Virus record (IMG/VR): IMGVR_UViG_3300014720_000016
Reading direction: 5' to 3' (one strand)
DNA length: 64,000 nt
DNA from: a virus
The position numbers were made by a program, and so were the translations under genes. This document shows, piece after piece, positions 1,024-59,528 of the stretch; positions within the stretch are counted from its first letter, which is position 1, and each line of letters starts with the position of its first letter. The notes beneath the pieces were generated by a model. That model was not told the origin of the DNA. It saw nothing but the letters and a program-made list of their open reading frames with translations, and ran no database searches.

Positions 1024-1395
1024 CTAGCTCGTAGATGACGAGCCGCCATCTTTGTTAGGAGATAGAGCAGGATTCACAATGAACTGTGATCTTGTTATGT
1101 TCCCTAGCTCATCAAAATGAATGATTGCAGGCCCATCGGTGCGGTGGCACTTGCCATTCACGTAGTACTCAAGAGCGCGAACCGTTCCGTTAGGCCAGAA
1201 CCACGCAGCAGCAGGCCCATGCGTATTCGTTATAAAACCAGTATTAGTTCGCCAGTGAGCAGACTGTATAGTGCCGCGCTCTTTGTAAACAACTAGATAT
1301 GCGCCCTCTTTGGCAGAGTACAGCCTTCCCCAATCCGGGTTCCATACCGCATCAGGAGGCCCGCTTGCTAGGAATTCCAAGAATGCAAGTTTCAT
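1024..1395 (-). CDS. MORN-variant/YwqK-like repeat protein, MKL start
   Basis: HGPA..WPNG and YYVNGKCHRTDGPA repeats. Confidence 0.65.
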   Translation of the reverse strand: MKLAFLEFLASGPPDAVWNPDWGRLYSAKEGAYLVVYKERGTIQSAHWRTNTGFITNTHGPAAAWFWPNGTVRALEYYVNGKCHRTDGPAIIHFDELGNITRSQFIVNPALSPNKDGGSSSTS

Positions 1396-1437
1396 AAATT
1401 ACTGTAAGCCTTACTACTAAAAGGCCTGGAGAAATAC

Positions 1438-1722
1438 ATGATAAAGAAACTTGCAGAAATCGCAAATGAACTGGATGCAGCTGGCGAGATGGCTGCGGCG
1501 GACAGGGTAGACGCCATAATCGACAACCTACGCCAAGCAGCTGCCGGCGACATGAAGCGTCACCCCGATTGGGTGGCGGCAGCCAGCCGGGCCTTACCAA
1601 TGCTGGATTCAGCGATGGATTGTTTTACCGACAAGAATGTCACCCCTCCGGGCGATCTAGTATGGGCAATCGAAGATCTCCGCAAGATTGTGGAGTTCAA
1701 TAAAAAGAACCCCGCTAAGTAG
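1438..1722 (+). CDS. hypothetical protein with IANELD leader
   Basis: N-term MIKKLAEIANELDAAGEMAAADRVD; GGAG RBS. Confidence 0.8.
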   Translation: MIKKLAEIANELDAAGEMAAADRVDAIIDNLRQAAAGDMKRHPDWVAAASRALPMLDSAMDCFTDKNVTPPGDLVWAIEDLRKIVEFNKKNPAK

Positions 1723-1993
1723 ATTTTTTGATTGCAGCTTCTGCAAGCTGTACGGCATCGCAGTAGATGCCAAAGCCTCGAGAATCGGACTCGGCACTAA
1801 GTCGGTTCGACTCAAGCAGCGCACGACAAGCATCTAGAGCCGTATCGCGTTGCCTGCGCATTACGCAGAGGCCGCAAGGTCGATCTGCTGCACACTCATA
1901 GGTAAGCTCACCCGGACCAGCTACCGCGCAACCACCGATCTCAATCTGCCACATTAGGGCCTGGTAGGCCGCCTTCCAGTCTTTGTCTCTCAC
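1715..1993 (-). CDS. hypothetical protein
   Basis: ORF in dense minus-strand run; CxxC motif. Confidence 0.6.
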   Translation of the reverse strand: MRDKDWKAAYQALMWQIEIGGCAVAGPGELTYECAADRPCGLCVMRRQRDTALDACRALLESNRLSAESDSRGFGIYCDAVQLAEAAIKKST

Positions 1994-2004
1994 AAGATCA
2001 GTAC

Positions 2005-2541
2005 CTACTCTTCCCAGTATACCTTCTCTCCCCTTCTATAAAGCCGTAGCTCAGGAGGAGGGCTGTCCAGATTGACAGTAAAGTGCTTATCATAAATAGT
2101 AAAATAGTTATTTGGTAGCAGCCCAAAGTTACCGGCTTCAAGTGCAATCAAGGAAAGGGGCTTGTGTTCCTGAGGGTACCTAGAGAAGCCATCGCTCCAA
2201 TCTATGATAATCCCGGTATGACGAAATAGAAAATTTTCTTTTATTGTCTTTCCAGTTAACCCATCTAGGTACGGAAAATGAGTAGCAGTTATATCGCTGC
2301 CCATGCAACCCCATGGCTCAATTGCCGGCAAGGTATCGGGCACAGCTTTATCCCTCAAAACTGAAAGAGGTAGACCGCTCCAGTGAGCCCCGCTTTGCAA
2401 CTGAACATGAGTAAGCATAAGCTGACCCGGTCTAGCAAATACTCCATGAAGAATTCCCTGGGTCAGTCCAGGTTGCATATCATGGCCGAGATGCTCGTTG
2501 TCTACCCATACGTAGAAATGATGTGGCAGAGCTATATGCAT
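2005..2541 (-). CDS. hypothetical phage protein
   Basis: 178-aa ORF tightly packed in the minus-strand run. Confidence 0.7.
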   Translation of the reverse strand: MHIALPHHFYVWVDNEHLGHDMQPGLTQGILHGVFARPGQLMLTHVQLQSGAHWSGLPLSVLRDKAVPDTLPAIEPWGCMGSDITATHFPYLDGLTGKTIKENFLFRHTGIIIDWSDGFSRYPQEHKPLSLIALEAGNFGLLPNNYFTIYDKHFTVNLDSPPPELRLYRRGEKVYWEE

Positions 2542-2546
2542 CGGGA

Positions 2547-2807
2547 CTACCTCACAACAAATGCGTAGTTACCAGGAGGATACCCGGCTGGTGGGTGGGA
2601 GCGATGGTTCCATACTCCATCGCACCAATAATTCCATGACTCATGACCTTTGACTATTGAGATGCACAACCAATCGCTACTTATCTCTGGATTAGCAGTT
2701 ATCCTCTCAGGTGGCTCAATCCCAATTTCTCGCGAAACTATTCGTACTACCTCGCGCCAATCGCGCGAGGCGGCAGCAGATTGCAAAGCCCAGTCATGGA
2801 GTTTCAT
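2547..2807 (-). CDS. MKL family A small protein
   Basis: MKLHDWALQSAAASRDW..REIGI..YW. Confidence 0.75.
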   Translation of the reverse strand: MKLHDWALQSAAASRDWREVVRIVSREIGIEPPERITANPEISSDWLCISIVKGHESWNYWCDGVWNHRSHPPAGYPPGNYAFVVR

Positions 2808-2840
2808 TATTTGCCTGCATCATTACAGCAGGCTAGATCG

Positions 2841-3317
2841 TCAACTTCCTAGCTGAGCTTCTAGTTCAGCAGTGCGCTTGCGTAGGCGCTCAAGTTCATC
2901 TAGAGCATCTTTGTGCCGCTTAGCTTCCTCTGCCTGCTTGCGCTCTACGTCAGCCTTCTGCTGGCGCGCTAGCTTGTTTGTAAGCTGGCGCCGGAACAAA
3001 GGGCGACTAGGAAACGGAGGAGTTACGAAAACTTCATTATCATACAGCGTATTACCATTAAACACAAACGCAGTATAGTTGACATCGCCCCGGCATTGTA
3101 CGCGAAAGATAACTTCAGGGAATGCCTTGGATAGTGCAAGGGTCACACTGTGGCCTCCCGACCACTTTGTTTCCGGGCTAAAGCGCCGCCAGCACCATGC
3201 AACGAAATTGCCGTCCTGCCTAAAATCAGTAAGCGCATTAGCTTCTGCCGCAATCTGCGCTTCAAGGGTTGGATTCGAATCGGCAATGTCAATGCAAAAA
3301 GAGTAATAACTTCCCAT
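2841..3317 (-). CDS. hypothetical protein with C-terminal coiled coil
   Basis: KW..LSKAFPEVIF; charged helical tail. Confidence 0.7.
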   Translation of the reverse strand: MGSYYSFCIDIADSNPTLEAQIAAEANALTDFRQDGNFVAWCWRRFSPETKWSGGHSVTLALSKAFPEVIFRVQCRGDVNYTAFVFNGNTLYDNEVFVTPPFPSRPLFRRQLTNKLARQQKADVERKQAEEAKRHKDALDELERLRKRTAELEAQLGS

Positions 3318-3775
3318 TATTTTTCCTCGGCTTTTGCAGCCTTTGTGTTATAACCTGACAGTAGGGCGAAGCCCTCGTGACGGGTCCATGTAACAGATGA
3401 TGGCAGTCCGTATAGCGCCTCGGCTTCGCATCGCCCACAGCTAGCCGCGACTGCGGTACAGTCGCCAGAATGATGCGCGGATAGTTGCAGCTTGTGATGC
3501 GACACGAAGGCGCTAAATCCTCCCGGCCAAAGCGCATCCCAGCAATCGCCGTATTCATGCGTATCACTAAATAGTTTCTTCATAAGGCCGGCTACAATTC
3601 CCTCGTAGCGCACCTGAGCATCTCGCGCACTAGCGGAGCCAAGCCCACCCTTTAGATGCATATCAGCAGTAAGCAGCCGGTCATGAACAATGTATTCCAA
3701 GCACCAGCGATAATATGCAGCTCTATGAGCGTCCTCACTAATGTCCGCTGGCGGTGGGCATATGTCGTGGCTCAT
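3317..3775 (-). CDS. hypothetical protein
   Basis: HSGDCT..SCGRC metal-binding-like motif; abuts next gene. Confidence 0.7.
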   Translation of the reverse strand: MSHDICPPPADISEDAHRAAYYRWCLEYIVHDRLLTADMHLKGGLGSASARDAQVRYEGIVAGLMKKLFSDTHEYGDCWDALWPGGFSAFVSHHKLQLSAHHSGDCTAVAASCGRCEAEALYGLPSSVTWTRHEGFALLSGYNTKAAKAEEK

Positions 3776-3892: not shown

Positions 3893-4279
3893 CTAGGTTA
3901 AGTGATTCTTGTATACACAATAGCCGCTTGAGAGCGAGCTTCTTGCAAAACCAGCGGCCTCTGCCGCAGCTATTGCCTCTAGAGCCCCTGCGCTCGCAGG
4001 CATATTAAAATTAAGATAAATGGCACCTAACAAACTAGGTGCATCCCACTCGGTATCGCCACCCATAGCAGAAATACCATCTTCTGAAACACCAAGCCTG
4101 TATATCATGAAGGCGCGCCGCGACACCCACTCTATCAGCAGGCTGTCCTCGCGAGCGAGTTGCAGCAGCATGTTAAATGGCACCCCGCATATTTCCTTAG
4201 GAACCGGCAAACCATAATCTGCAATTGATGCGCGGATATACTCATCGCTACCGGCCCACCAGACATTTGCTAATTTCAT
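3893..4279 (-). CDS. hypothetical protein, MKL start
   Basis: Start re-set to MKLANVWW at 4279; ATGA overlap with upstream stop. Confidence 0.65.
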   Translation of the reverse strand: MKLANVWWAGSDEYIRASIADYGLPVPKEICGVPFNMLLQLAREDSLLIEWVSRRAFMIYRLGVSEDGISAMGGDTEWDAPSLLGAIYLNFNMPASAGALEAIAAAEAAGFARSSLSSGYCVYKNHLT

Positions 4280-7896: not shown

Positions 7897-8256
7897 CTAT
7901 TCTCCTGGTCCTTCAAGATATTCGAATTGAATTTCTAGCTGTTCGCACTTGGCGCGCAGATCGCGCACATGCTGGATAATAGTTGCATCATCAGGGCAGA
8001 CAGTGCTCCACTTGATACCTAGTGCATTAAGTACGCCTTCTGCAAGGTCTCCGGCCTGCTTGGCGCAGCCTTCGGCATAACTGCTTGCCGCATCCAGCCG
8101 CTTCTGACAGCGGAGTAGATCGTCTAAGATTTCCTTGTTGCAGGATTTCAGGCGTGCCACTTCGTCGCACAGGGCAAGCACATCGGCTGCCGCTCGTGAC
8201 AGATCAACTGATGAGCCACGGTACATTTGACGAATACATTCTTCGTCTAGCTTCAT
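7897..8256 (-). CDS. hypothetical coiled-coil protein, MKL start
   Basis: AGGAAG RBS; 39 nt downstream of motif 8295. Confidence 0.7.
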   Translation of the reverse strand: MKLDEECIRQMYRGSSVDLSRAAADVLALCDEVARLKSCNKEILDDLLRCQKRLDAASSYAEGCAKQAGDLAEGVLNALGIKWSTVCPDDATIIQHVRDLRAKCEQLEIQFEYLEGPGE

Positions 8257-9504: not shown

Positions 9505-9879
9505 TCACCGTGGCGGAGCATAGGCCCGGACAACAATCTTTTTACCGGGCAGCGCTGCTAGGATGCTCCGCATAGCAGAGGCTCCCACAGGATTATGAGA
9601 ATGGATAAGTATATTGTCTGGGCAGTGATCAGGATTATTAACCAGCCAGCGGGCGGCATCCTTACCCGTTAATTCCCGCACTGTACCGTCCTCCCGGACA
9701 GTGTCAGGGTCGTGCTCAAAGCCCAGATCATGATCGAGGCAAACCATGTCATAAGCACCTGATCGGGCCAGCCCTACGAATTCGCTATAGGTGTATGCAT
9801 GGGCAAGATCGTTGCCTGCCAGAATCTTCTGAAATCCGGCGTGACGTTCTGCATCATCATCAAGAATCAGTGTCTTCAT
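9505..9879 (-). CDS. cyclic-phosphate-processing receiver (cREC-like) domain protein
   Basis: LILDDD, LDHDLG, TG, IHSHNPVGA motifs of this stand-alone receiver clade. Confidence 0.75.
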   Translation of the reverse strand: MKTLILDDDAERHAGFQKILAGNDLAHAYTYSEFVGLARSGAYDMVCLDHDLGFEHDPDTVREDGTVRELTGKDAARWLVNNPDHCPDNILIHSHNPVGASAMRSILAALPGKKIVVRAYAPPR

Positions 9880-10204
9880 TTTTGTCCGTTTGCAGTAATC
9901 GAATTTCTTTTAGCAAAGCACCAGTCATACTGGGATCAGACGACCCTGGCATGACGCCTCGAGTAAGAAGATCAATTGTAGCATCGTCAACCGGAATAGA
10001 TCCTGGGCTGAATAAGTAATTGCCGCCTAGTGAAGAAACCCAGCTACAAATGTCTAGGCTGTCAGGATCAAGGGCTAGCCTGAGCTTTCCGCTGCCAGGT
10101 ATATTAAAAGATACCACTATGCGACTGCCGTTGCGGTAAGCACTGAATCCAGCACCAGCAGGAATAGGATAGCGAAGTAATATCTCCGCATTTTCTAACT
10201 TCAT
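9860..10204 (-). CDS. hypothetical protein, MKL start
   Basis: GAGG RBS; overlaps downstream gene. Confidence 0.65.
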   Translation of the reverse strand: MKLENAEILLRYPIPAGAGFSAYRNGSRIVVSFNIPGSGKLRLALDPDSLDICSWVSSLGGNYLFSPGSIPVDDATIDLLTRGVMPGSSDPSMTGALLKEIRLLQTDKNEDTDS

Positions 10205-10222: not shown

Positions 10223-10456
10223 TTACTGTTTGTTGCCAAAAGTATAGTCGTTCTCAGGATCGTCAGGCACATCTATCTGCTCTGAATCGCCTAGCACGCT
10301 GATGGCATAAATGCTGACAGGCTCCCGATTTTTTCGGAACCTGTAGTTGTGCTGCGCCAGCACTATCCCGAGAATAGCCATATCTTGAGGATAGGGCAGT
10401 CGCAGGACGCACGTTCCCCATCGGTCACGGAATTCATAGGCCTTGATAAGCTTCAT
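10223..10456 (-). CDS. MKL family B small protein
   Basis: MKLIKAYEFRD..IYAISVLGD..I. Confidence 0.7.
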   Translation of the reverse strand: MKLIKAYEFRDRWGTCVLRLPYPQDMAILGIVLAQHNYRFRKNREPVSIYAISVLGDSEQIDVPDDPENDYTFGNKQ

Positions 10457-12287: not shown

Positions 12288-12593
12288 CTAGGTAAAAAGC
12301 CTTTGGACTACATAAGGATCCGTCACGCCCTCATCATCCCCTGAAGCCTCTAGCATACGGTATGCCAGCTCTATTGAGCTTTTTGTAATCTTGGCAAGAT
12401 TTGGAGAGAAGTAGGTGCCGGTGACGACTTGTCCACCTATACTTATCTGCTCACCGAACTGGTATATACAAAAGCCAGGCTTAACAACCCAAGCATACAT
12501 CGTGCTATCATCATAGATTCCGGTGAAAGCATCCGTGTATTCGCCAACTACTTCCTGTAGATGTTCGCGAATTTCCCACTCTCTAATCTTCAT
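12288..12593 (-). CDS. MKL family C protein
   Basis: MKIREWEIREHL..GF..YFSPNLAKI; paralogue of 14512-14844. Confidence 0.7.
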   Translation of the reverse strand: MKIREWEIREHLQEVVGEYTDAFTGIYDDSTMYAWVVKPGFCIYQFGEQISIGGQVVTGTYFSPNLAKITKSSIELAYRMLEASGDDEGVTDPYVVQRLFT

Positions 12594-12856
12594 TGCTTCA
12601 TCGCAAACACTACCCGTAGTGCCGGGTGAATGGTGTCTATAAAAGTATTGGAATAAAAACCTTCGCCGTCGCTCCAACTGTAGTACTCTTTGGATCGGTA
12701 CATAACGATCTCATTGCCAGCATAAGGATCGTCTACTACGACTTCAGCAGATGCTGTGTCAAAGTCAATCCCGAACTGCGCCTTAAACAACCTGTATATC
12801 TCGTCCACGTCGCGGCGCTGGAATGCATCTAGCATCTGGTAGTGATCCAGCTTCAT
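12590..12856 (-). CDS. MKL family A small protein
   Basis: MKLDHYQMLDAFQRRD..AQFGI..YSW..GF. Confidence 0.8.
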   Translation of the reverse strand: MKLDHYQMLDAFQRRDVDEIYRLFKAQFGIDFDTASAEVVVDDPYAGNEIVMYRSKEYYSWSDGEGFYSNTFIDTIHPALRVVFAMKQ

Positions 12857-12857
12857 G

Positions 12858-13115
12858 CTATACCCTTAGAGTAATGGCGCAAGATGTGCGACGATTAAAC
12901 TTGGCAAAAGATTTGCCGAAGCCGCTTTCGGCGGTCCATTTATAGTATCCTGGCCCATCCCAAAGGTGGACCGCATCTCCATGAAGATGAGTAGGATGAA
13001 CTTCTACTGACAAGTCTACAATGCTCAGGCCGAAGTGCTCTTGAAAGATCTGCACGGCTTTGTCGGTGTCGGCCTGCTGGAAAGCCTCTAGCATTAGATA
13101 GTGATTTAGCTTCAC
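12858..13115 (-). CDS. MKL family A small protein
   Basis: MKLNHYLMLEAFQQAD..EHFGL..YKW..GF (GTG start). Confidence 0.8.
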   Translation of the reverse strand: MKLNHYLMLEAFQQADTDKAVQIFQEHFGLSIVDLSVEVHPTHLHGDAVHLWDGPGYYKWTAESGFGKSFAKFNRRTSCAITLRV

Positions 13116-13132
13116 GCCTCACCCGCCCCTCT

Positions 13133-13155
13133 GGATAGGCGCGGCCCGGCTTTAG
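13133..13155 (-). promoter_or_regulatory. recurrent oriented motif (variant)
   Basis: GGATA-GGCGCGGC-CCGGCTTTAG; its TAA is the stop codon of the upstream gene. Confidence 0.55.
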
Positions 13156-13436
13156 ACCGGAGCCCGCGCTCTAATTGCCATGGCCCACCACACAGTGATG
13201 CTAGGTTTTGTGTAAGGCGTTATTATTTCAAAGCAAGAAAAGCCATTACGCGAATCCCACACATATGACTTATACCCTGCGTCAACCCTAAGCTGGTCAA
13301 TATAAGGATATGAATCCCTTACTTCTGCCTCGACATTAGGGAGCTTTATGTTAAAGTGTTGCTCGACGCCAGCCTTAATAGCAGGCAGATCCCGCTCAGC
13401 AAAGGCAAGGCGCATCGCATAGTTGTCTAGCTTCAT
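13152..13436 (-). CDS. MKL family A small protein
   Basis: MKLDNYAMRLAFAERD..QHFNI..YVW..GF. Confidence 0.8.
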   Translation of the reverse strand: MKLDNYAMRLAFAERDLPAIKAGVEQHFNIKLPNVEAEVRDSYPYIDQLRVDAGYKSYVWDSRNGFSCFEIITPYTKPSITVWWAMAIRARAPV

Positions 13437-13449
13437 GACTGCGCAACAC

Positions 13450-13968
13450 TCAATCCCAGAACCGATCAAGGGTTTCAATGATGCCAATGAAGTCTGAGAT
13501 AGGAGAGCCGGAGCGAAAGCAGCCGACCTGGTCGGGATGATTACCCCATCGGCAATGGCCGCGGTCAATGTCGTCCTTCATCTGTACCAGTTGCTTGACA
13601 GCCGCTTCCGTAATATAGTTGTGATTAATGTATTGCTGATAGCTATATGTGCCATCGTCTTCGTGCGCAATATTGTCGCAACCGACAACACTTACCTGCT
13701 TGCAAAGACCGAGGTCATAGGGGCTGCTCTTGCGCCACTTGATAGTGGAGAACGTGCCGCCCGCCGGTTCGAGATCGTAGGCAGTGCTCTCTGGATCGGC
13801 ATAGTGAGCTTCGTAAGCAGGGATATCAGGAACCGCTACTGCCTTGTAGTACTTGCCAAGTGTGCCGAAGAAAGGGATATCATCCTGCGAGCAGGAGAAG
13901 TTTACATAAATCTTAAAGCAGTCGCCAGCAGCAACCGGCGGGCTGTAGTCAATCTTGTTAATTTTCAT
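13450..13968 (-). CDS. hypothetical protein
   Basis: 172-aa ORF, MKI start, within run. Confidence 0.65.
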   Translation of the reverse strand: MKINKIDYSPPVAAGDCFKIYVNFSCSQDDIPFFGTLGKYYKAVAVPDIPAYEAHYADPESTAYDLEPAGGTFSTIKWRKSSPYDLGLCKQVSVVGCDNIAHEDDGTYSYQQYINHNYITEAAVKQLVQMKDDIDRGHCRWGNHPDQVGCFRSGSPISDFIGIIETLDRFWD

Positions 13969-14245
13969 GCTGATAATCCCGCTTTCTTATAACGGTTAGT
14001 TGCGGCACTACGTCGCCTAGCCCGGCTGAATAACGATAGGAATAGAAGCCAGTGTCCTGGCTCCATGTATAGCGCTTGTCGCAAATACGCAGAGAAACAT
14101 AGCTGTCATCCACTACGCTGTCTAGGAGTGCGACCTCTGCTTTTGCCTGAAGGGAGCAGCCGTGATGCCTAGCGATGGCAGCAGCCAGACCATCCCAGTC
14201 GCCGCGCTCGATCATAAATATAAGCTCGTAATCTATGAGCTTCAA
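13958..14245 (-). CDS. MKL family A small protein (TTG start)
   Basis: LKLIDYELIFMIERGDW..RHHG..YTW..GF; AGGA RBS. Confidence 0.75.
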   Translation of the reverse strand: MKLIDYELIFMIERGDWDGLAAAIARHHGCSLQAKAEVALLDSVVDDSYVSLRICDKRYTWSQDTGFYSYRYSAGLGDVVPQLTVIRKRDYQHEN

Positions 14246-14246
14246 A

Positions 14247-14844: not shown

Positions 14845-14850
14845 AATGCC

Positions 14851-46494: not shown

Positions 46495-46911
46495 TCAAAA
46501 TCTCCAGAGAAAATAAGTGCAGTGCCCGGTGGTATTATAGACTCGCACCTTGAAGGCGTGCGCTTGAGAGGCGATGCTACGGCCCAGGGGGCTGAGTCGC
46601 AGGGATCTGATTGACGCAAGGTCTGTCCACTTCCGGGTCTCGATCCAAACGCCATCGTCCTGGGTTGTCCATTGGAGAAAAAGGGATTGCTCATTCTCTG
46701 TAGTAGGTTGCAGCAGGTTAGACCAGCCTGCTGCCCGGCGCTTCTCGTTGGTAATGGCGATGTATTTATTCTGCCATTCCAACCAGCTTACGAGATTACG
46801 GAGTCGGCGCTTGCCGAGCGCGACTGGCTTCAGATCATTAGCGGTGAAAAAATTGGTAAGGGCAGCATCAATAGCGTCAGCACGAACATGCGGAATATTG
46901 GAAAGTTTCAC
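46495..46911 (-). CDS. MKL family E protein
   Basis: VKLSNIPHVR..FFTANDLKP; GGAG RBS. Confidence 0.75.
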   Translation of the reverse strand: MKLSNIPHVRADAIDAALTNFFTANDLKPVALGKRRLRNLVSWLEWQNKYIAITNEKRRAAGWSNLLQPTTENEQSLFLQWTTQDDGVWIETRKWTDLASIRSLRLSPLGRSIASQAHAFKVRVYNTTGHCTYFLWRF

Positions 46912-48261: not shown

Positions 48262-48630
48262 TCAATCCGCGTGCCAAAAGATGCGGAGAATTTTGCTGTC
48301 AGCGGGGTCTGTGATCACCAGCGGATCTAGCCCGTCGTTCAGCACATCATTGATGAAATGCCGGCAGTAGCAATCTTCACTAAGCGGCTGCGGATCAAGT
48401 GTGTCATCGAACTCACAGCCCCACGTCGCTTCGCCCGCAGCTAGATCAGCAAGCGACAGCCCGTTGTCGGCCATCATCTTCTTCAGCCGGGATTTAGATG
48501 CGCGCTTCCAGAGTTGAGGATTGGACGCCGCAGCAAACGCAGCGGAATCAGCCGGGTCAAAGCGGGCGTGAACGTGTACGGCAGCATAGCGAATAATCGT
48601 AGGAATAATAGCGGCGGTGCTTAGCTTCAT
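48262..48630 (-). CDS. hypothetical protein, MKL start
   Basis: ORF in run. Confidence 0.65.
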   Translation of the reverse strand: MKLSTAAIIPTIIRYAAVHVHARFDPADSAAFAAASNPQLWKRASKSRLKKMMADNGLSLADLAAGEATWGCEFDDTLDPQPLSEDCYCRHFINDVLNDGLDPLVITDPADSKILRIFWHAD

Positions 48631-49608: not shown

Positions 49609-49698
49609 TACTGCTCCAGCGCAATAGTAACCGGCGGCAGGACTCGCACCTGCGTCTCCCGTGAACAATACGGGGCTTTGCTACTAAGCTACACCGAT

Positions 49699-50314: not shown

Positions 50315-50617
50315 TCATGTGCTGCGCTGATCTGAACTTGTCCAAACCGTAGCGCTTACTACCTCTACCTTGCTGTAGTCCCGGTCTGCGGGCCAGCCGG
50401 GCGCAGGAGCATAAAAGGCATAGAAGCTACCCGCACACCATTCATAAGGATCTGGACCAACCCAGGCTCTAACGGCAGGGCTGTCATCTTCCACTTCCTT
50501 TATGACGATCTGCACGCCCGGTAAGTTTATGTCAAAATGTTGCAGCAACAGGCGCACTGCCGCTTCATACCGCCCTTCGGATATAGCGGTTTGCAGCAGG
50601 TAGGATTCCAGTTTCAT
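50315..50617 (-). CDS. MKL family A small protein
   Basis: MKLESYLLQTAISEGRY..QHFDI..YEW. Confidence 0.8.
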   Translation of the reverse strand: MKLESYLLQTAISEGRYEAAVRLLLQHFDINLPGVQIVIKEVEDDSPAVRAWVGPDPYEWCAGSFYAFYAPAPGWPADRDYSKVEVVSATVWTSSDQRST

Positions 50618-50620
50618 GAT

Positions 50621-50893
50621 TTATCTTTCGGGCACAGAAGTAATAGCGGCAACCGATCCCGGATAGTGTGCAGCCCTGCGTCGTACTGTGCCGTCACGAG
50701 AATAGGAGATTCTCTTTGATCCCATATAGAATACTACGGCTTTCCAGGTAAAGCTGTTTACGTCCCATACATCCAGCTCTATAGAGGTGTGGGGCGGGAG
50801 CGTGATGCCTAGTTCCGCGGCTACCAGGTGGACCGCCTCTTCGTAATGCTTGCCGGTTATAAGTTCATCAAGGCGGTAGGTCAGTATCTTCAT
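50621..50893 (-). CDS. MKL family A small protein
   Basis: MKILTYRLDELITGKHY..ELGI. Confidence 0.7.
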   Translation of the reverse strand: MKILTYRLDELITGKHYEEAVHLVAAELGITLPPHTSIELDVWDVNSFTWKAVVFYMGSKRISYSRDGTVRRRAAHYPGSVAAITSVPER

Positions 50894-51083
50894 GGGCGTC
50901 CATCTGTTGCTGTAGCCAGGGCCTAATGTAGGTGCAGATCGTACAGCTGATTGGGTGTTCGTTATCCGCATCAGCCCAGTTCGTTAGTCTCCCTACGCCA
51001 TAGTGCTCGATTAGGATTGGGAGCATACGGGAAAAATCCCCGCTGGCGATTGCATCCTGTACGGACCATTCATCTATTTTCAT
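50868..51083 (-). CDS. MKL family A small protein (short)
   Basis: MKIDEWSVQDAIASGDF..EHYGV. Confidence 0.7.
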   Translation of the reverse strand: MKIDEWSVQDAIASGDFSRMLPILIEHYGVGRLTNWADADNEHPISCTICTYIRPWLQQQMDAHEDTDLPP

Positions 51084-51345
51084 TCGGCGTCCATATTACC
51101 ATTGCGGTCAGAGGCCCGTGTCCGCCGGTTCCAATGGCGGAATAGAAGCCGCCATCTTCCCATTCAAACCCGCGGTGGTGCAGCCATATGCGGATAGCGT
51201 AGTTTGTATGCGGAACGCGGGTAACTTTTATTTCTTTTAAAGGCGGGTCTATAGCGTAGCCGTAGGCTTGTGCCAGGATTGTTGCGGCATCCATATGCCG
51301 GCCTTCCCGCAGGGCTTCCCGTATTTGATATGAGGCTAGCTTCAT
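51070..51345 (-). CDS. MKL family A small protein
   Basis: MKLASYQIREALREGRH..AYGY..FEW..GF. Confidence 0.8.
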   Translation of the reverse strand: MKLASYQIREALREGRHMDAATILAQAYGYAIDPPLKEIKVTRVPHTNYAIRIWLHHRGFEWEDGGFYSAIGTGGHGPLTAMVIWTPNENR

Positions 51346-51629
51346 CGTGGATGCCATATCTTCATTGCCGCGAAGGGGGGATTTGCTCCAACATGGCCAT
51401 GCCGATAGCCATACCTAACCGTCCACTCATACCAGTCTCCTTTGACACAGAACAGCAACGAGGAGAGCCCTGTCCGCCTTTCTATCGGCAGATCTGGAGC
51501 CGGCCCTAGCCCGAAGTGCTGGAACAGGATCGCCATTGCTTCCCGGTTATCGGCTGCGGCATCATCAGCTGTACCCCTGCGGGCACGAGCATCTAGGGCC
51601 GAAAGAATCGCAAAAGTATCTAGCTTCAT
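51342..51629 (-). CDS. MKL family A small protein
   Basis: MKLDTFAILSALDA..QHFGL..YEW..GY. Confidence 0.8.
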   Translation of the reverse strand: MKLDTFAILSALDARARRGTADDAAADNREAMAILFQHFGLGPAPDLPIERRTGLSSLLFCVKGDWYEWTVRYGYRHGHVGANPPFAAMKIWHPR

Positions 51630-51648
51630 GCGGCCATGCTCCTACCTA

Positions 51649-51921
51649 TTATACTCGTTTGCTCCAGATCACAGCCCGGGGATCAGTCCGGTAATTGTAG
51701 AATGTGGCATGTCGGAAGCGGCCTCGCTCACTCCATTCATACCAGTATTCTTCTATATAAACTAGTATGCGCGAAGAATCCGACCCTGTGATAGAATTTA
51801 CTTTTATTTCAGCGCTGGGCGGCAGTTCGCTCTGTGCAAAGTTTTGCAATAGAGCATTGCAAGCGCCACGGTAGTCACCAGCAGCCAGCAGGTCAGCAAT
51901 CAGGAAATGCTGTAGTTTCAT
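51649..51921 (-). CDS. MKL family A small protein
   Basis: MKLQHFLIADLLAAGDY..QNF..YEW. Confidence 0.8.
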   Translation of the reverse strand: MKLQHFLIADLLAAGDYRGACNALLQNFAQSELPPSAEIKVNSITGSDSSRILVYIEEYWYEWSERGRFRHATFYNYRTDPRAVIWSKRV

Positions 51922-52175
51922 AGCGGAAACCATATATGTACTAGTGGGGGGGCGAGGCGCCGTGGCAGTCCGCTGCTGCGAAAGCCGGCTGCGGCTGTCC
52001 AGGAATACCACTTCGCATCATAGTAAATCATTTCCGCGATAGGAGCTACGCGCCGGACTATTTGCAAATCCCCCGGCACTTCGCCAAGACCGAAGTGGTG
52101 AAATAGGACTTGTACGGCCCCTACATTGTTGCCGGACTCTAGGGCGTCGATGATTGCAAATTTATCCAGTTTCAT
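51918..52175 (-). CDS. MKL family A small protein
   Basis: MKLDKFAIIDALESGN..HHFGL..YSW..GF. Confidence 0.8.
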   Translation of the reverse strand: MKLDKFAIIDALESGNNVGAVQVLFHHFGLGEVPGDLQIVRRVAPIAEMIYYDAKWYSWTAAAGFRSSGLPRRLAPPLVHIWFPL

Positions 52176-52282
52176 GGCGGCAGAATCCGATTCCTGCCTA
52201 CCAGCCGTTCGGCAATCCGCTCACGGAGCGCAAGCGTAAGGCAAACAAAACCCAAAATCAGTGCAAGCACAGGTGCAGTCAT
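52172..52282 (-). CDS. 36-aa single-pass membrane microprotein
   Basis: MTAPVLALILGFVCLTLALRERI..*; ATGA overlaps at both ends. Confidence 0.55.
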   Translation of the reverse strand: MTAPVLALILGFVCLTLALRERIAERLVGRNRILPP

Positions 52283-52587
52283 TGTGGCCCCTTCCATACA
52301 ACAGCGCGAACTGGTACGGGATTTTCAGGTGGTGTTACTGAGCCGCTATAGCGCGACTTCACGGCTATGCTCCAAAAACTATCGGTTTCAAACCAGGCAT
52401 AGCATCTATTCCAATGCGGACCTGCAATAATCTCGATGCCCCATTCTACGCCCCAGGCTTCGGGGCCTTGTGCCTCGATGCGATCTATGTGCAGGTCTAG
52501 CTCGAAGTGCGCCTGTAGTAGTGCGGCTGCGGCAGCATAGTCGCCGGAGATCAGGGTATCCCGCATCAGCCAATCGTCCAGCTTCAT
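52279..52587 (-). CDS. MKL family A small protein
   Basis: MKLDDWLMRDTLISGDY..AHFEL..YAW. Confidence 0.8.
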   Translation of the reverse strand: MKLDDWLMRDTLISGDYAAAAALLQAHFELDLHIDRIEAQGPEAWGVEWGIEIIAGPHWNRCYAWFETDSFWSIAVKSRYSGSVTPPENPVPVRAVVWKGPQ

Positions 52588-52874
52588 GTAGCGCCTGCTG
52601 GGTGCCAGAGATTTATATAAATTTGCAGTACATCGTAGTCATACAGGGGATAGCTGTGTGATCCGGTAGTAAAGCCGTGGATGCTGTGCCATGCATACCA
52701 GTCATCGTTGACCCAGACGCACAGCTCGGTTTCATTGCCCCGGCCTGTGTAGTTGCGTATCTTTGGCAGGTGCTCTACCTGTGGCAGCCGGAAATAGCGC
52801 AGCAGGATACGTACGGCTCCATAGAGATCGCCCGTAGCAATAGCCTCTCGTATTTCGAATGATTCTAGTTTCAT
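52584..52874 (-). CDS. MKL family A small protein
   Basis: MKLESFEIREAIATGDL..RYFRL..YAW..GF. Confidence 0.8.
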   Translation of the reverse strand: MKLESFEIREAIATGDLYGAVRILLRYFRLPQVEHLPKIRNYTGRGNETELCVWVNDDWYAWHSIHGFTTGSHSYPLYDYDVLQIYINLWHPAGAT

Positions 52875-52922
52875 TGGATTACTGCGACAGTAAGCTGCGC
52901 AGTAATTATTACATTCCGGGGA

Positions 52923-53198
52923 CTACCAGACAGTGCCACGCTGTGCCAGGGTAAAGGGGTAGCGACAGATATCTTCCACAAATCCGTCATCCCTGTGAGA
53001 AATAATATAGATATCTGAGGCATGGTAGATGCGGACAGAGATCCATGCTCGCGGGAAGTTCTCACGATTTCGTAGGGTTCTTTCGTCTGCAATCTTATGC
53101 GGCAGCGGTATGCGGAAGTGATCGGCAACTAGCTGGATTGCGCGGGTGGGATTGCCGGCTTCTAGTGCTTCAGATATACCCCAGCTAAGTAGCTTCAT
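52923..53198 (-). CDS. MKL family A small protein
   Basis: MKLLSWGISEALEAGN..DHFRI..GF. Confidence 0.8.
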   Translation of the reverse strand: MKLLSWGISEALEAGNPTRAIQLVADHFRIPLPHKIADERTLRNRENFPRAWISVRIYHASDIYIISHRDDGFVEDICRYPFTLAQRGTVW

Positions 53199-53491
53199 GC
53201 CGTTTGCCTCCAGGCTCCTGGAAAGAATATTGTGTTTTGTTTCGGTGGAAAAGCCAATGGGTCCCGATGGAAAGCGCCTGCGGGTATTGCCCATGCATTC
53301 CGTAAGGCATATGTGTACGTGTAGCCAGGGACATCTAGGCGAATATACGTCATCCACCTAATTGCCTCAACCTCCCACTTCTCATCTAGGCGGTTGTGTA
53401 GTTCGGGAAAAGCTTTAGCAAATATTTCCACTACAGCACGCAGGTCGCCGCGCTCTACCGCATCCTGGATTGCCCATGACGCCAGTTTCAT
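53195..53491 (-). CDS. MKL family A small protein
   Basis: MKLASWAIQDAVERGD..KAFP. Confidence 0.75.
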   Translation of the reverse strand: MKLASWAIQDAVERGDLRAVVEIFAKAFPELHNRLDEKWEVEAIRWMTYIRLDVPGYTYTYALRNAWAIPAGAFHRDPLAFPPKQNTIFFPGAWRQTA

Positions 53492-53706
53492 GATTTGTAA
53501 TCCGCTAGCGGGATCTCAGTCTTGCCCCCTAGTGCGTCAATGGCAAATAGCCGCAGCGGAAGCGTTACATGGGGAGAATCGCGATACATTTGCGCGTATC
53601 GAAGGGCTATACGACGAGCGTGCTCGATGCCGCGTACATCTGGTGTTGTTTTGAACATGTACCTGCTGTCAGAGTCCAGCACAAAATAACTCCTGATTAG
53701 CTTCAT
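53488..53706 (-). CDS. MKL family B small protein
   Basis: MKLIRSYFVLD..LPLRLFAIDALG..EI. Confidence 0.75.
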   Translation of the reverse strand: MKLIRSYFVLDSDSRYMFKTTPDVRGIEHARRIALRYAQMYRDSPHVTLPLRLFAIDALGGKTEIPLADYKS

Positions 53707-53718
53707 ATACCCTCTGCT

Positions 53719-53928
53719 CTAATCAAGCTCCACTTCACGCCGCTCACCTAGGGCATCTACCTGAATGAAACGCAGTGGCAGCATACGCTGGCGCTCATAG
53801 TAAGAGATTCCCCGTAAAAAACTTGCGCTTATTCCTGCGCGCGTACCCCTATCAAACAGCGAGGGCGGGATACTGCCTAGCAGGCGGTTGCGGTTATCGT
53901 AGACTAGGTAATGCTGGATTAGCTTCAT
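53719..53928 (-). CDS. MKL family B small protein
   Basis: MKLIQHYLVYD..LPLRFIQVDALGE..EV. Confidence 0.75.
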   Translation of the reverse strand: MKLIQHYLVYDNRNRLLGSIPPSLFDRGTRAGISASFLRGISYYERQRMLPLRFIQVDALGERREVELD

Positions 53929-53941
53929 GATCCCTTGTGGA

Positions 53942-54223
53942 CTATTTCTCCATCGTCGGTTTCCATTCTGCTGGCAACCATAGGACAACAACATCTTCAT
54001 CCCCGTAAAAATCCGAGAAATATCCAGGTGGGCTGCCATCAAACCACTCGGCGACCGCGCCATCAACTACGATCTCAATACCTAGTATTCGGTTAGCGCG
54101 CTTTATACGTTCCGCACAGGCGTCTGGTACTGGGATGCCGAAGGCGGCACAGAGCAGCCGCTCGGCGGCAGCATAGTCCCCGGCTTCTAGGGCGGTTTTG
54201 ATCTGGTATGATTCGAGTTTCAC
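53942..54223 (-). CDS. MKL family A small protein
   Basis: VKLESYQIKTALEAGDY..AAFGI..EW. Confidence 0.8.
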   Translation of the reverse strand: MKLESYQIKTALEAGDYAAAERLLCAAFGIPVPDACAERIKRANRILGIEIVVDGAVAEWFDGSPPGYFSDFYGDEDVVVLWLPAEWKPTMEK

Positions 54224-54226
54224 TCT

Positions 54227-54574
54227 TCATCCACTGAAAGGAGATTTCTTTGATTTCTTTTTTGCGGGCGCTACATGCGATAGCACGTATTTCAGATCTG
54301 AGCGTAGCAGTTCTACTTCTGCCCGCAGGTCCTGTAGTTGTCTAAGAATATCTGCTTCAGCAGGACTAGGGGCTTGCGGGGGCGGCAGGACTAGGGATAC
54401 CCCGCATTTAGGGCAAGCCTCGCCCGTAGTAAGGGTACTGCACGCGCCACAGCACCGGATCAGCGTGGTAGCAGGGAGTGTGGTCGTATTAGGCAGGGGA
54501 TAGGTGCCAGTGCCATCGGTAATGCGGAAGCAGTACTAGCAAAACACGCCCGGCAGATGGTTGCAGAAGCTCAT
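54227..54574 (-). pseudogene. zinc-finger/coiled-coil gene with an in-frame TAG at codon 13
   Basis: MSFCNHLPGVFC*YCFR..CCGAC..CPKCG..; ATGA-coupled start; fills the gap exactly. Confidence 0.6.
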
Positions 54575-54759
54575 TCTTTTTCCCCTGGAGTTATATTCAG
54601 CGCATCCCCTAGTGCGTCTATCTCGTATAGTGCCAGGGGTGTTTGTGTAATAGCCGCAACCCATGCAAAGTCTACAATCGCATCATGCTGCGGCGGTATC
54701 TTGCCCACTACTTCACCGGTGCCTTTTATCCGTATTTCGTAATGGCGGATTAGCTTCAT
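54571..54759 (-). CDS. MKL family B small protein
   Basis: MKLIRHYEIR..PLALYEIDALGD. Confidence 0.75.
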   Translation of the reverse strand: MKLIRHYEIRIKGTGEVVGKIPPQHDAIVDFAWVAAITQTPLALYEIDALGDALNITPGEKE

Positions 54760-54949
54760 GACCCATCTCCAGAATATGCAAATCACCTAGGGCATCTACG
54801 GCGGCTATATGTAGCGGGGTGAGGTGCTTGTAGATTATGCTATAGAGATCCCGCATATGGCACATATGCTGCTCGGATGCATCATCGCCAAACCGGAGCA
54901 CAAGACCCCGGTTTGCATCCACCAGTAAGTATTCTGTAAATAGTTTCAT
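54713..54949 (-). CDS. MKL family B small protein
   Basis: MKLFTEYLLVD..PLHIAAVDALGD. Confidence 0.75.
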   Translation of the reverse strand: MKLFTEYLLVDANRGLVLRFGDDASEQHMCHMRDLYSIIYKHLTPLHIAAVDALGDLHILEMGHEANPPLRNTDKRHR

Positions 54950-55657: not shown

Positions 55658-56015
55658 AGCAATCCTTTTCGTTCTTGAAGTCTACGCCAACAGAATAGTA
55701 ACCATTAGAGCTGCCGGACCAGCGGATTGTGACATAGCCACGGATCGTGGCGAACTTATAGAAAGTCCAGCCGGTCAGCCCTTCGTCATCATCGACCAAT
55801 CTCTGGAACACAACCTCTGCGGTAAGCAGAGGGACTCCAATCAGATCGGCAATATCGCCATCGATCTGCTCGATGCCTACGCTCTCGCAGCAGTCCTGAT
55901 GGTGATACATGCGGAAGATTTCGCCATCGCTGCAATGGAAGCGTACATCATCTTCCTCAATGCCAGAAATACGCGTAAGGGTTTTTCCACGGATAGGCAG
56001 GGCGTCAGCGGTCAT
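55647..56015 (-). CDS. conserved phage hypothetical protein
   Basis: MYHHQDCCESV..WTFYKFAT..IRW.G.SNGYYS. Confidence 0.8.
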   Translation of the reverse strand: MTADALPIRGKTLTRISGIEEDDVRFHCSDGEIFRMYHHQDCCESVGIEQIDGDIADLIGVPLLTAEVVFQRLVDDDEGLTGWTFYKFATIRGYVTIRWSGSSNGYYSVGVDFKNEKDCYDY

Positions 56016-56659
56016 GGCAGCTCCACTATGCCGCCGGTAGTATAGGCAGCATTGCTATAGATTGTGTCTATTATGCGAATCTGAGAATAAGAGGCTTGGT
56101 GAACGTGGCCAAACAGGGCAGCCTGAAAGCGGTGCGTGCGGTATTGCAGGGCAGTGGCCAGCGCAGGAATACCGTAGTGGACTCCTGGTCTATCTGAATC
56201 AAAGATGCCTGCTGGCGGGGCGTGGCTCAGTAGGATGTCACCGGGTGCAGACAGGCCTGAGTCCCCGTCAAAAATATCCGAGATTATCGCAGCCATCTCG
56301 GGTGTACGCACTTCGCCAGCCCATTCGCCTGCAATGTATGGTATCTCTCGGAATCCAATCCATTGCAGTCCGGCTACCTGTACGGGTGTCAGGTCTGCTC
56401 GGGTAGCTGGTAGAAAATCTGCAAGTTCTATATAGTCGTGATTACCAGGGACGTAGATTAGCGGGCGGTTGCCTAGCCAGGTACGAATAGGATTGAGAAA
56501 TCGCTGTAGCCAAGCGGTTTGGAACGGGACTTCCCTCTCAATAATACCGCGTGTGCTATTCGGGAACAGGTCGCCTGTATGGACCACTACGTCCACATCG
56601 GGCAACGGGTTGTCCCAGAAGCCCCAGCCATGCGTATCGGAAAGATGATAAATCTTCAT
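56012..56659 (-). CDS. calcineurin-like metallophosphoesterase
   Basis: DTH, GD, GNHD, SH.PP, FGHVH motifs. Confidence 0.9.
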   Translation of the reverse strand: MKIYHLSDTHGWGFWDNPLPDVDVVVHTGDLFPNSTRGIIEREVPFQTAWLQRFLNPIRTWLGNRPLIYVPGNHDYIELADFLPATRADLTPVQVAGLQWIGFREIPYIAGEWAGEVRTPEMAAIISDIFDGDSGLSAPGDILLSHAPPAGIFDSDRPGVHYGIPALATALQYRTHRFQAALFGHVHQASYSQIRIIDTIYSNAAYTTGGIVELP

Positions 56660-56742: not shown

Positions 56743-57567
56743 ATGAAAAAACTAGTTACCCGGATTGTTGAACTTGCTCATTACGCAGACCGTCACGGCT
56801 ATTATAAAATAGCAGAAGATTTAGATGAGTTAAGCTCCTCGATGATCGACGAGACCAAGACTGGCCCTGCTACAAAGCTGAGCGATCTACCTGACTGGGA
56901 AGCAGGCGGGGGCTACAACAATATCATATCGCTCCTAAAGAGCGCTACTCCAGCGGAAGTAGATTACTGGCGCAACTGGTACGGCAATGCGCGACAAGAC
57001 GTAGAGGCTCTAGCGGCTAAATACGGCGAACCTTTTGAGCGGGTAGCGGCTGTCGTGGCCGTGCTTAGTCCGGGCAACAAATGGGCATCTAATCTGCGGG
57101 CAGCCGAGACTATCCTGCTAGAAGTGCATGGCGAGCCAGGTGTCGGAGTGGTACCGCGCAAGGGCAAAGGGGCCGGCACGTCAGACATCTACCGGGATTT
57201 CATTGCTGAAGAATTTCCGTCAAATGTTCCATACCGGGATGTGTCTGCTTATCCTGCCAATGCACGAAAGGCGCGGGATATCCTTGTGACGGGAAATATC
57301 GGCCAAAGCCTGTCGGGTCCAAAGGTTACTGTATTCTATGACAGTCTTGTGCATCCTGAGTGGGCGCGGGACCGCATGGTTCTGGACGGCCATGCGATAA
57401 ATATCTGGCGTGGCGTCAAGGTACCACTAAAAGGGCTGACTGCTCCTAGTAAGGAGGAGCGGGCGGCTATGCTAGCAGACTACCGCCGGGCTGCTGCGGA
57501 TAGCGGTCTAAGCGTGCAGGAAGTACAGGCGATTACCTGGTTCCTTTGGAAGAATATAGAAGAATAG
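56743..57567 (+). CDS. IANELD-like leader fused to a helical DNA-glycosylase-like (DUF7178-like) domain
   Basis: LAHYADRHGYYKIAEDLD leader; WY..A, VAVLSP..W..N, SGPKV..F, LDGHA, VQAITW. Confidence 0.6.
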   Translation: MKKLVTRIVELAHYADRHGYYKIAEDLDELSSSMIDETKTGPATKLSDLPDWEAGGGYNNIISLLKSATPAEVDYWRNWYGNARQDVEALAAKYGEPFERVAAVVAVLSPGNKWASNLRAAETILLEVHGEPGVGVVPRKGKGAGTSDIYRDFIAEEFPSNVPYRDVSAYPANARKARDILVTGNIGQSLSGPKVTVFYDSLVHPEWARDRMVLDGHAINIWRGVKVPLKGLTAPSKEERAAMLADYRRAAADSGLSVQEVQAITWFLWKNIEE

Positions 57568-57990: not shown

Positions 57991-57996
57991 TTTTCC

Positions 57997-58605: not shown

Positions 58606-58650
58606 TCCTTATAGCCACGCCCGGTTGCGGGTCAAGTGGTGTGCTGTTGC

Positions 58651-58673
58651 GGATCGGGCGGAACCGGGTTTAG
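58651..58673 (-). promoter_or_regulatory. recurrent oriented motif
   Basis: GGATC-GGGCGGAA-CCGGGTTTAG. Confidence 0.7.
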
Positions 58674-58754
58674 GGCGGGGTCGACCTGGCAGTCTAGGGT
58701 GTCAATGCTTGCAGGCCGGGCCAGCTTCGTGTCTAGTTCTGGGAAAACCTGCGC

Positions 58755-58976
58755 TCAGTAATCCCAACCACGCTCTGCCCGGTTAGCGCAGGTATCACAC
58801 TGATAGCCACGCGCCCGGTCAGCAGGCGTTAGGCGGTTAGGAGCTTTGCAGTTAGGACAAGGAAGATTTCGGGGATTATCCGCTGTAGCAGCTCGGAGCG
58901 CAGAGCCACCGCCTGGATCTGCAAAGTCGCAGAGATAATCCTCATCCTCATAACCGAAGTCATCATCATCGTACAT
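58755..58976 (-). CDS. small zinc-finger protein
   Basis: FADPGG.SALRA..PCPNC..YQCDTCA. Confidence 0.75.
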   Translation of the reverse strand: MYDDDDFGYEDEDYLCDFADPGGGSALRAATADNPRNLPCPNCKAPNRLTPADRARGYQCDTCANRAERGWDY

Positions 58977-59017
58977 ACTGCTTCCGTTGCTAGAGGTTGG
59001 TCGCTAGTAAGAATCTT

Positions 59018-59203
59018 TTATTTTCCTGCAAGCCAGTTCAGGGCTGCACCCAGTCTGCGGGTTGACAGGACGAATTCCCCATCAGATGTGCAGCAAAGAA
59101 AGGCATCATCTCCCGGGTCATGAATCACAACCCAATCACCACGAACCCAACGGGTGTGGGATGGCTGTATGCCGTTGTCTATAATGCGAACAGAAATGTC
59201 CAT
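59018..59203 (-). CDS. hypothetical protein
   Basis: GAGGAG RBS; 31 nt after motif. Confidence 0.65.
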   Translation of the reverse strand: MDISVRIIDNGIQPSHTRWVRGDWVVIHDPGDDAFLCCTSDGEFVLSTRRLGAALNWLAGK

Positions 59204-59233
59204 GGCCTGCTCTCCTCGGTCGTTCGGCCTTCA

Positions 59234-59256
59234 GGATCAGGGGACACCGGCTTTAG
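59234..59256 (-). promoter_or_regulatory. recurrent oriented motif
   Basis: GGATC-AGGGGACA-CCGGCTTTAG. Confidence 0.7.
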
Positions 59257-59270
59257 GCCGGACGGGACTG

Positions 59271-59528
59271 CTATCGTGACCGGATGTTGATTTGATTCGA
59301 AAGATACCTAGGAACGCAACTAGATCGGAATCCCTCGAACTCAAGCCAAGAATAACGGGCCGAAGGCATATCTACTGTTACTTCTAATAGGTAATGCGGG
59401 TGGCAGTAGATGTGCCTTGTGTATTCTGGCGGTATGATTATGCCGAAATGTTCTGCAAGAATGGCAATAGCTGCGGGCCAATCTTTATTGGAAATAGCCT
59501 CTCGCACCGCATAGCTAGCTAACTTCAT
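59271..59528 (-). CDS. MKL family A small protein
   Basis: MKLASYAVREAISNKDWPAA..EHFGI..YSW..GF. Confidence 0.8.
   Translation of the reverse strand: MKLASYAVREAISNKDWPAAIAILAEHFGIIIPPEYTRHIYCHPHYLLEVTVDMPSARYSWLEFEGFRSSCVPRYLSNQINIRSR

Follow-up and report, generated by a model that had tools for sequence, protein, structure and literature searches.

We analyzed a 64-kb stretch of DNA from an uncultured jumbo phage (IMG/VR record IMGVR_UViG_3300014720_000016; hereafter, the window), in which nearly all genes lie on the minus strand and a large share of them, from unrelated families, encode proteins beginning with Met-Lys-Leu (MKL) or, less often, Met-Lys-Ile (MKI; jointly MK[LI]). The explanation that we favor, and to which we give about an even chance, is that MKL marks the beginning of an N-terminal helix module that acts at the level of the protein and has been acquired by many small accessory proteins unrelated to one another. 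MKL would form the first turn of a conserved alpha-helix of ~12 to 15 residues that fronts many small, fast-diverging proteins of this jumbo-phage lineage. The helix would serve as a protein-level handle (for docking, targeting, or fold-capping), read alike in all these proteins by a putative partner, and would have spread by duplication and by 5'-end recombination within gene arrays. Large phages carry hundreds of small orphan genes that offer no handle for their study; the MKL module would mark a coherent class among them, amounting to half of the genes in this arm of the genome and ca. 15% of the genes in a 372-kb relative, and the shared helix would be a direct experimental entry point to these orphans.

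MKL starts in the small-gene arm

The only relatives found in IMG/VR were a complete genome (G001; 371,675 bp with direct terminal repeats), whose MoxR protein is 92% identical to that of the window, a 24.8-kb fragment from a closer relative, and a 71-kb fragment that is only distantly related. Contigs encoding an identical MoxR protein were 99.98% identical to the window itself. Since the window, on its minus strand, maps to G001 from ~362 kb across the genome ends to ~73 kb, it is the small-gene arm adjoining these ends. Its segment 58000-63264, matching G001 at 362-371 kb and 3-6 kb, spans the terminal repeat and the ends, and the MKL arm borders the physical ends of G001 on both sides. The 140- to 320-kb core of G001 was used as the rest-of-genome control. 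Neither a 12-kb piece of the window, searched as DNA against a phage collection, nor one member of the most abundant MKL family (family A, see below), searched by tblastn, had a match, and a Pfam search with ten small MKL proteins found no domain. The recognizable products of the window are an RNA ligase, a MoxR-type AAA+ ATPase with a VWA/DUF2201 partner, an M16 peptidase, and a metallophosphatase.

Counts of the start word ATGAARCT(N) are 55 for the minus and 1 for the plus strand, compared with 4.69 ± 2.29 for both strands together in shuffled sequences, none of which (0/100) reached 56. Its plus-strand image, AG[CT]TTCA[TC], had been described as recurrent in an earlier reading of the letters alone (the original prediction), and indeed appears 66 times versus 2 on the other strand. 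Gene calling was blind to MKL, being built only on codon usage and gene packing, and gave 151 genes with 56 MKL and 9 MKI starts. After eight start corrections that left the open reading frames the same and the addition of three genes, the arm (1024-59528, minus strand) comprises 154 genes, 76 of them starting with MK[LI] (66 MKL and 10 MKI), which agrees with the ca. 70 genes of unrelated families that had been predicted to share their first codons. The MKL criterion itself helps to fix start-codon calls in these genomes.

To group the proteins, those of the window and of G001 were clustered after removal of their first six residues, by BLAST followed by iteration with hidden Markov models (HMMs). 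The window resolved into 91 families, 17 of which, besides family A, start with MKL. When family A is counted once, MKL families make up 17/90 in the window versus 2/128 in the G001 core (Fisher P = 8e-6), far from the common background that would have undone the original prediction, and the excess persists among families of ≤160 amino acids (16/67 versus 2/46, P = 0.007). MKL is, then, more than one expanded family. Within G001, 74 of the 499 genes start with MKL, with 54/180 at 0 to 80 kb and 3/148 in the core, so that the comparison with the rest of the genome, for which the G001 core stands in, places the arm far above the core. Non-A MKL starts are still present in a more distant relative, L046 (ClpS 65% identical), a distant relative fragment without family A had no MKL enrichment, and unrelated contigs had 0 to 1 MKL starts per 10 to 20 kb. 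The trait belongs to this phage clade alone, and within it to the small-gene arm.

Conservation of the N terminus on different protein bodies

Family A, with 46 members in the window by HMM, accounts for 45-46 of its MK[LI] genes. In the alignment of these 46 sequences the mean column identity is 18%; M1 and K2 alone never vary, and no other position except L3 and W63 reaches ≥90%. A search of 1.84 billion representative proteins with the family profile retrieved 266 representatives, and among the best 150 matches of the family A (A1) profile 133 start with MKL or MKI, while most of the others have the motif just inside a mis-called start. The same holds outside family A. In non-A MKL orthologue pairs between the window and G001, K2 was kept in 100% and L3 in 92%, with the remaining protein ~50% identical, whereas in non-MKL pairs positions 2 and 3 were kept in 52 to 70%, the same as the bodies.

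At the DNA level these positions are free, which was the outcome that the original prediction had set for a peptide signal as opposed to a DNA signal. Lysine at codon 2 is encoded by AAG and AAA in a ratio of 51:23, matching usage in the bodies (68% AAG), all six leucine codons are used at codon 3, with isoleucine as the main replacement, and no conserved DNA was found upstream of MKL starts apart from a weak Shine-Dalgarno (SD)-like G at -8/-9. Because the lysine codons follow body usage and every leucine codon occurs, selection acts on the amino acids K2 and L3 and not on an 8- to 9-nt DNA word.

The conservation extends beyond the first three residues. MKL opens a predicted helix of 12 to 15 residues with the consensus M-K-L-[DEN]-x-[WYF]-x-[IMA]-x-x-[AL]-[LI]...G, which takes the form MKL[DE][DS][YWF]x[IM]xx A[LIF]xxGD in family A and MKLDxWEAISSLLxAGG in a MORN-type family (13 members in G001). 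When 50 non-A MK[LI] families were given one vote each, their residues 4 to 12 scored like helix 1 of family A, in clear distinction from the N termini of non-MKL families (P = 4e-6) and from segments following internal K[LI] (P = 2e-9). The extended helix is present in about one third to one half of the non-A families.

The AlphaFold2 (AF2) model of family A (predicted local distance difference test [pLDDT] score of 94) consists of helices at residues 2-13 and 17-28 followed by five strands. It retrieved nothing from the PDB with Foldseek at E ≤ 0.001, and the best Z in an exhaustive VIA-align search of 48,161 chains was 3.1. The MORN-type family is marked by HR[ED]DGPA repeats (Pfam DUF6745) and has 15 members, 13 MKL proteins in G001 and two in the window, where only 1024-1395 (minus strand) starts with MKL. 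Its model (pLDDT 92.6) has a helix at residues 3-14 and then beta-hairpin repeats, and matches MORN1 and junctophilin with a Foldseek probability of 1.00. The helix thus fronts two distinct folds or more, that of family A and a MORN-repeat fold among them. Comparison by hhalign of 20 multi-member MKL families, with MKL removed, revealed no relation except for one B-type pair. We also considered that the non-A bodies might be frame-shifted copies of family A, and discarded this idea since non-A MKL genes translated in the other two frames gave no family A signal. Among the three options of the original prediction, a recombination junction, an initiation signal, or a protein-level N-terminal tag, the last fits best, with K2 and L3 kept while synonymous sites drift and with a 12- to 15-residue helix on unrelated folds.

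The closest described counterpart is the capsid targeting sequence (CTS) of phage T4, an N-terminal peptide of ~10 residues that is the sole common part of the diverse, fast-evolving small proteins IPI, IPII, and IPIII and their T-even kin, which are presumed to play a part in the arms race against the host (PMC3012670, PMC9026906). As with the CTS, phage proteins that are otherwise unrelated (family A, MORN-repeat, and others) are best conserved in their N-terminal residues. The differences are considerable. Processing of the CTS is determined by residues 8 and 10, the propeptide being removed by the prohead protease gp21 (PMC9026906), whereas a cleavage motif [LI]xE at residues 6 to 22 is not enriched in our proteins (28% of family A, 20% of non-A MKL, and 17% of non-MKL proteins) and the MKL helix belongs to the predicted fold; a cleaved tag of the T4 type was rejected on these two grounds, the missing enrichment and the packing of the helix in the AF2 models. 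A search of G001 for a gp21-type protease (Peptidase_S77, PF03420) gave no match, as it did in the control genomes, which leaves this search without a positive control; a ClpP-like protein at 170.9 kb of G001 matches head-maturation-protease PHROGs. There are also 75 to 90 MKL genes per genome instead of a handful, and they are found in a small-gene arm headed by promoter-like repeats, away from the head genes. A bolder version of our explanation, which we advance only tentatively, is that the helix is an address label for one machine, and that the 75 to 90 tagged genes per genome are a library of interchangeable, fast-evolving effectors handled as one class. Candidate readers in or near the arm, proposed jointly with the label and just as tentatively, are the phage ClpS with ClpP (timed proteolysis), the MoxR-VWA pair, and the capsid-loading apparatus. 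If the label were real, the T4 capsid-targeting idea would extend to another phage lineage and to a far larger repertoire.

Several observations weigh against a common helix module. About half of the non-A families, for instance families B and C, share MKL alone. Both AF2 models confidently show the helix packed into the fold and not as a free tail, so its conservation could be purely structural, and the separateness of the families depends on shallow alignments. No partner, cleavage site, or localization signal was identified. The weaker SD sites and tighter junctions of MKL genes (see below) suggest that translation may contribute to keeping K2. Codon 3 is also not entirely neutral, with CTA in excess (29 observed versus 13 expected) and CTT under-used, a small RNA- or DNA-level effect that avoidance of AAGCTT explains only in part. 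This HindIII-type palindrome is depleted in the window (8 sites versus 21.6 ± 4.7 in shuffles), which suggests restriction-site avoidance, while CTAG is not depleted (247 versus 256). The scarcity of CTT after AAG at codon 3 of MKL genes fits this avoidance of AAGCTT across the whole window.

Gene junctions, translation, and competing explanations

MKL genes sit closer to the gene upstream than other genes do. A gap of ≤5 nt was found for 44/73 MKL genes versus 19/74 others in the window (P = 3e-5) and for 56/80 versus 85/230 in the arms of G001 (P = 5e-7), an odds ratio of ca. 4. In the window, 19 of the 73 overlap the upstream stop by exactly 4 nt (ATGA or GTGA) and 15 more by 11 to 47 nt; ATGA is also found at half of the non-MKL genes. 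All ten ATGA/GTGA junctions given in the original prediction proved exact, and the peculiar tails of upstream genes that it had pointed out (NEAS, NEAK, HETR, NEVR, and DEAG) are all present. Overlaps of 14 nt between the upstream gene and the MKL start occur in nine cases (e.g., 14512-14525, 27707-27720, and 37335-37348). These and the NEAS*, NEAK*, and HETR* tails arise because Asp or Asn codons followed by Ser or Asp codons create a stop at nt 12 to 14. Stops in the +2 frame at nt 12 are enriched (20 to 25% versus 7 to 11%), with no synonymous bias behind the out-of-frame stops at nt 12 to 14 (GAT, 27 versus 24.4 expected; AGY serine, 12 versus 11.7). A "universal junction," in which the start would be built to stop both other frames, was ruled out by this unbiased choice, the stops being a by-product of Asp-Ser or Asp-Asp at residues 4 and 5. 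The ATGA and 14-nt overlaps are probably ordinary operon compaction with translational coupling, which a lysine codon starting with A would permit and may aid.

Mean duplex energies with the anti-SD sequence were -4.6 for family A, -5.0 for non-A MKL genes, and -5.8 for non-MKL genes in the window, compared with -3.0 at random sites, and in the arms of G001 they were -3.9 for MKL genes versus -4.8 for the others (P = 0.002 and 0.007 for the weaker SD of MKL genes). The weakest were those of coupled MKL genes (-3.9 versus -5.0 kcal/mol). The claim that many of these genes lack an obvious SD is thus borne out insofar as their sites are weaker, but these are still stronger than random sites.

These data lend some substance to a translational origin of the motif, in which AUG-AAR-CUN favors initiation, re-initiation, or early elongation and is kept for SD-poor genes that depend on coupling. 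We regard this as possible, though doubtful as the whole account. Apart from the tight junctions and weak SD sites, it can appeal to the protein yield, the highest obtained, conferred in E. coli by Lys or Asn and then Ile or Tyr at codons 3 to 5, whatever the synonymous codon (PMC6920384), and to the general enrichment of A at the fourth coding position in bacteria, where ATGA is common (PMC5850271). The resemblance to the E. coli motif, a lysine and then a hydrophobic residue after the start, largely independent of the synonymous codon, is limited, since the published effect concerns codons 3 to 5, accepts Asn, and prefers Ile/Tyr, while MKL occupies positions 2 and 3, is strictly Lys and then Leu (Ile being minor), and is nearly absent from core genes. 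In family A no Asn replaces Lys and no Tyr or Phe replaces Leu, and AAA is not favored over AAG. The core genes of G001, late ones included, hardly use MKL, and many coupled genes do without it. Termination-reinitiation coupling, which shares with our genes the start overlapping or adjoining the upstream stop (ATGA) and the weak SD in coupled genes, would account for a second codon starting with A but not for an invariant Lys-Leu or for a helix with similarity reaching out to residues 12 to 15. The SD-independent initiation or re-initiation offered in the original prediction finds correlative support in tight junctions that are about four times as frequent among MKL genes and in their weaker SD, but leaves aside the strict K and L, the extended helix, and the rarity in core genes. 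If the effect were mainly translational, it would be a natural case of N-terminal sequence tuning for SD-poor coupled genes. A further option, which takes up the recombination junction of the original prediction and holds that ATGAARCTN is an 8- to 9-nt microhomology for the in-register insertion, duplication, and deletion of gene cassettes, draws on the unit-length arrays with precise junctions, on gene content that varies between relatives, and on the sharp drop of similarity at gene boundaries between them (the similarity continues as far as the start at 15114 and disappears within the family A gene there). Breaks at gene ends are, however, expected anyway where conserved and fast-evolving genes alternate. 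Moreover, a DNA word predicts the opposite of what was found at codons 2 and 3, where synonymous positions vary as in the bodies and amino acid changes are not tolerated; the upstream DNA is not conserved and the out-of-frame stops have no synonymous bias. We therefore set this option aside as very improbable. The sequence comparisons point to fast turnover of MKL genes, but synonymous divergence of the window from G001 is close to saturation, with same-codon use at identical residues about random in low-identity pairs, and for this reason the available relatives cannot map breakpoints or tell replacement from divergence.

Somewhat less improbable, albeit unlikely, is plain inheritance without a shared reader, in which other genes received a copy of the 5' end from an abundant family or all families have one ancestor, K2 and L3 being needed only by the first helix of each fold. 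In its favor, relatives show MKL enrichment together with family A, both models have the helix integrated in the fold, and Ile, a conservative change, is the sole replacement seen often at position 3. Were the role purely structural, an invariant Lys2 at 18% mean identity would nevertheless be unusual; families that otherwise share nothing, such as B and C, retain the same two residues, and the HMM, hhalign, and frame-shift searches found no body-level homology. The least probable of the explanations that we weighed, to which we give hardly any credence, is an N-degron timer, in which M-K-L is processed to expose Lys or Leu and a phage ClpS passes early proteins to ClpAP for timed removal. Its attraction is a ClpS homologue (91 bits) inside the MKL arm of G001 at 75,119-75,421 (L006:15119-15418). 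Further homologues in the clade are L044:6014-6310 and L046:10001-10309, and the synteny VanY ... ClpS ... HNH ... Ogg is conserved in G001 and these two further members. Aligned with solved ClpS chains, the G001 protein keeps in its core the NDD motif and the histidine that we take to form the N-degron pocket. G001 also encodes a peptide deformylase (137,962-138,366) and a ClpP-like protein (170,857-171,444). Acidic residues following an N-degron disfavor ClpS binding, and such residues come after L3 in MKL proteins. The encoded N terminus, moreover, is Met-Lys and not a free Leu, Phe, Tyr, or Trp or an L/F-extended Lys or Arg, and in the models it is helical and packed instead of a free tail. 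Lys and Leu are, respectively, secondary and primary destabilizing residues of the bacterial N-degron pathway (PMC5850271), but a search of G001 for an L/F-transferase (Leu_Phe_trans) found no gene and no processing peptidase is linked to MKL proteins. Jumbo phages that lack any such motif are already known to carry ClpS genes (PMC7824862), and the ClpS described here comes from the relatives G001, L044, and L046, not from the genome of the window. The N-degron is thus only a lead.

By synteny, the ClpS site is expected just past position 1 of the window. A metagenome scan with the G001 ClpS as the query returned distant ClpS genes only. The G001 orthologue of a DUF7178 protein in the window (56743-57567, plus strand) gave a weak, sub-threshold ClpS-like match (20.5 bits).

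Gene families and other features of the arm

The families listed in the original prediction were recovered with 6 (B), 3 (C), 2 (D), and 3 (E) members, as were its singletons at 1395, 4279, 8256, 10204, 17950, 18247, 34638, and 48630. Family A forms long arrays on the minus strand, with nine consecutive genes of 88 to 106 amino acids at 35339-37951, mostly joined by ATGA/GTGA or by overlaps of 11 to 14 nt, and eleven consecutive genes at 50315-53491, all MK[LI]. In a mixed block at 12590-15114 (minus strand), family A genes (12590-12856, 12858-13115, 13152-13436, 13958-14245, 14247-14525, and 14851-15114) are accompanied by an MKI gene (13450-13968) and an E-type gene (14512-14844). Besides the latter, the E type, with the start MK[LI]x[DEQ]WEI[RE], includes 31242-31595 and 12288-12593, all on the minus strand, and among non-A genes has the highest similarity to helix 1 of family A. 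Also on the minus strand are the two genes of family D (27298-27720 and 32677-33099), of 140 amino acids and with the start MKLNDWA..., and those of family C (46495-46911, 30470-30880, and 38419-38877), of 136 to 152 amino acids and starting with [MV]KLxS[IVM]P. Family B comprises proteins of 62 to 78 amino acids with the start MKL[IFL], four of them grouped on the minus strand at 53488-54949 (53488-53706, 53719-53928, 54571-54759, and 54713-54949) and the others at 42620-42832 and 10223-10456.

As a class, MKL genes diverge faster than the genes around them, with mean identities between window and G001 orthologues of ~44% in family A, 54% in the other MK[LI] genes, and 63% elsewhere. Of two adjacent singleton MKL genes on the minus strand (17612-17950 and 17954-18247), the former is only 29% identical to its syntenic counterpart in G001 (45,489-45,842), with neighbors at 70 to 98%, and both copies start with MKL. 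The G001 orthologue of another singleton (34249-34638, minus strand), at 48% identity, is also MKL. Other singleton MKL genes are 3893-4279, 7897-8256, 9860-10204, 39803-40177, 42313-42633, and 48262-48630. The MKI starts of the M16 peptidase (16483-17598, minus strand), the metallophosphatase (56012-56659), and a glycosyltransferase-like gene (23237-24010, plus strand) are ordinary enzyme background, outside the module.

Two conserved genes inside the arm, both on the minus strand, were used as anchors for finding relatives: the MoxR-type AAA+ ATPase (19825-20991) and the VWA/DUF2201 metallopeptidase-like protein (18578-19744). The largest plus-strand block of the arm (23237-27283) holds two paralogous glycosyltransferase-like genes (23237-24010 and 24020-24793), a DUF2827 protein (24815-25969), and an orphan of 423 amino acids, and looks like an inserted island, as its genes all lack counterparts in G001.

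The head of the arm carries an 11-copy cluster (61986-63834, minus strand) of a promoter-like element, CCTAAAGCCGGT-N7-GATCC. Located within GC-rich hairpins, this element has 26 copies on the minus strand (6208-63834) versus 1 on the plus strand, mostly 24 to 130 nt ahead of the first gene of a block, with 15 copies outside the head cluster. It is not preferentially placed ahead of MKL genes (5/15 first downstream genes start with MK[LI]). The promoter/stem-loop (PeSL) motifs reported to drive modular shuffling within the hyperplastic regions of T4-like phage genomes (PMC4122927) offer a parallel, a variable small-gene arm punctuated by a promoter-like GC hairpin in one orientation; the difference is that here the element lies between gene blocks and not at the MKL starts. 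Finally, tRNA-Ala(TGC) (45525-45600) and tRNA-Thr(TGT) (49629-49698) genes are found among the small genes of the minus strand, and the same arm of G001 carries tRNA-Thr, Met, Ser, Leu(TAA), and Gln genes.

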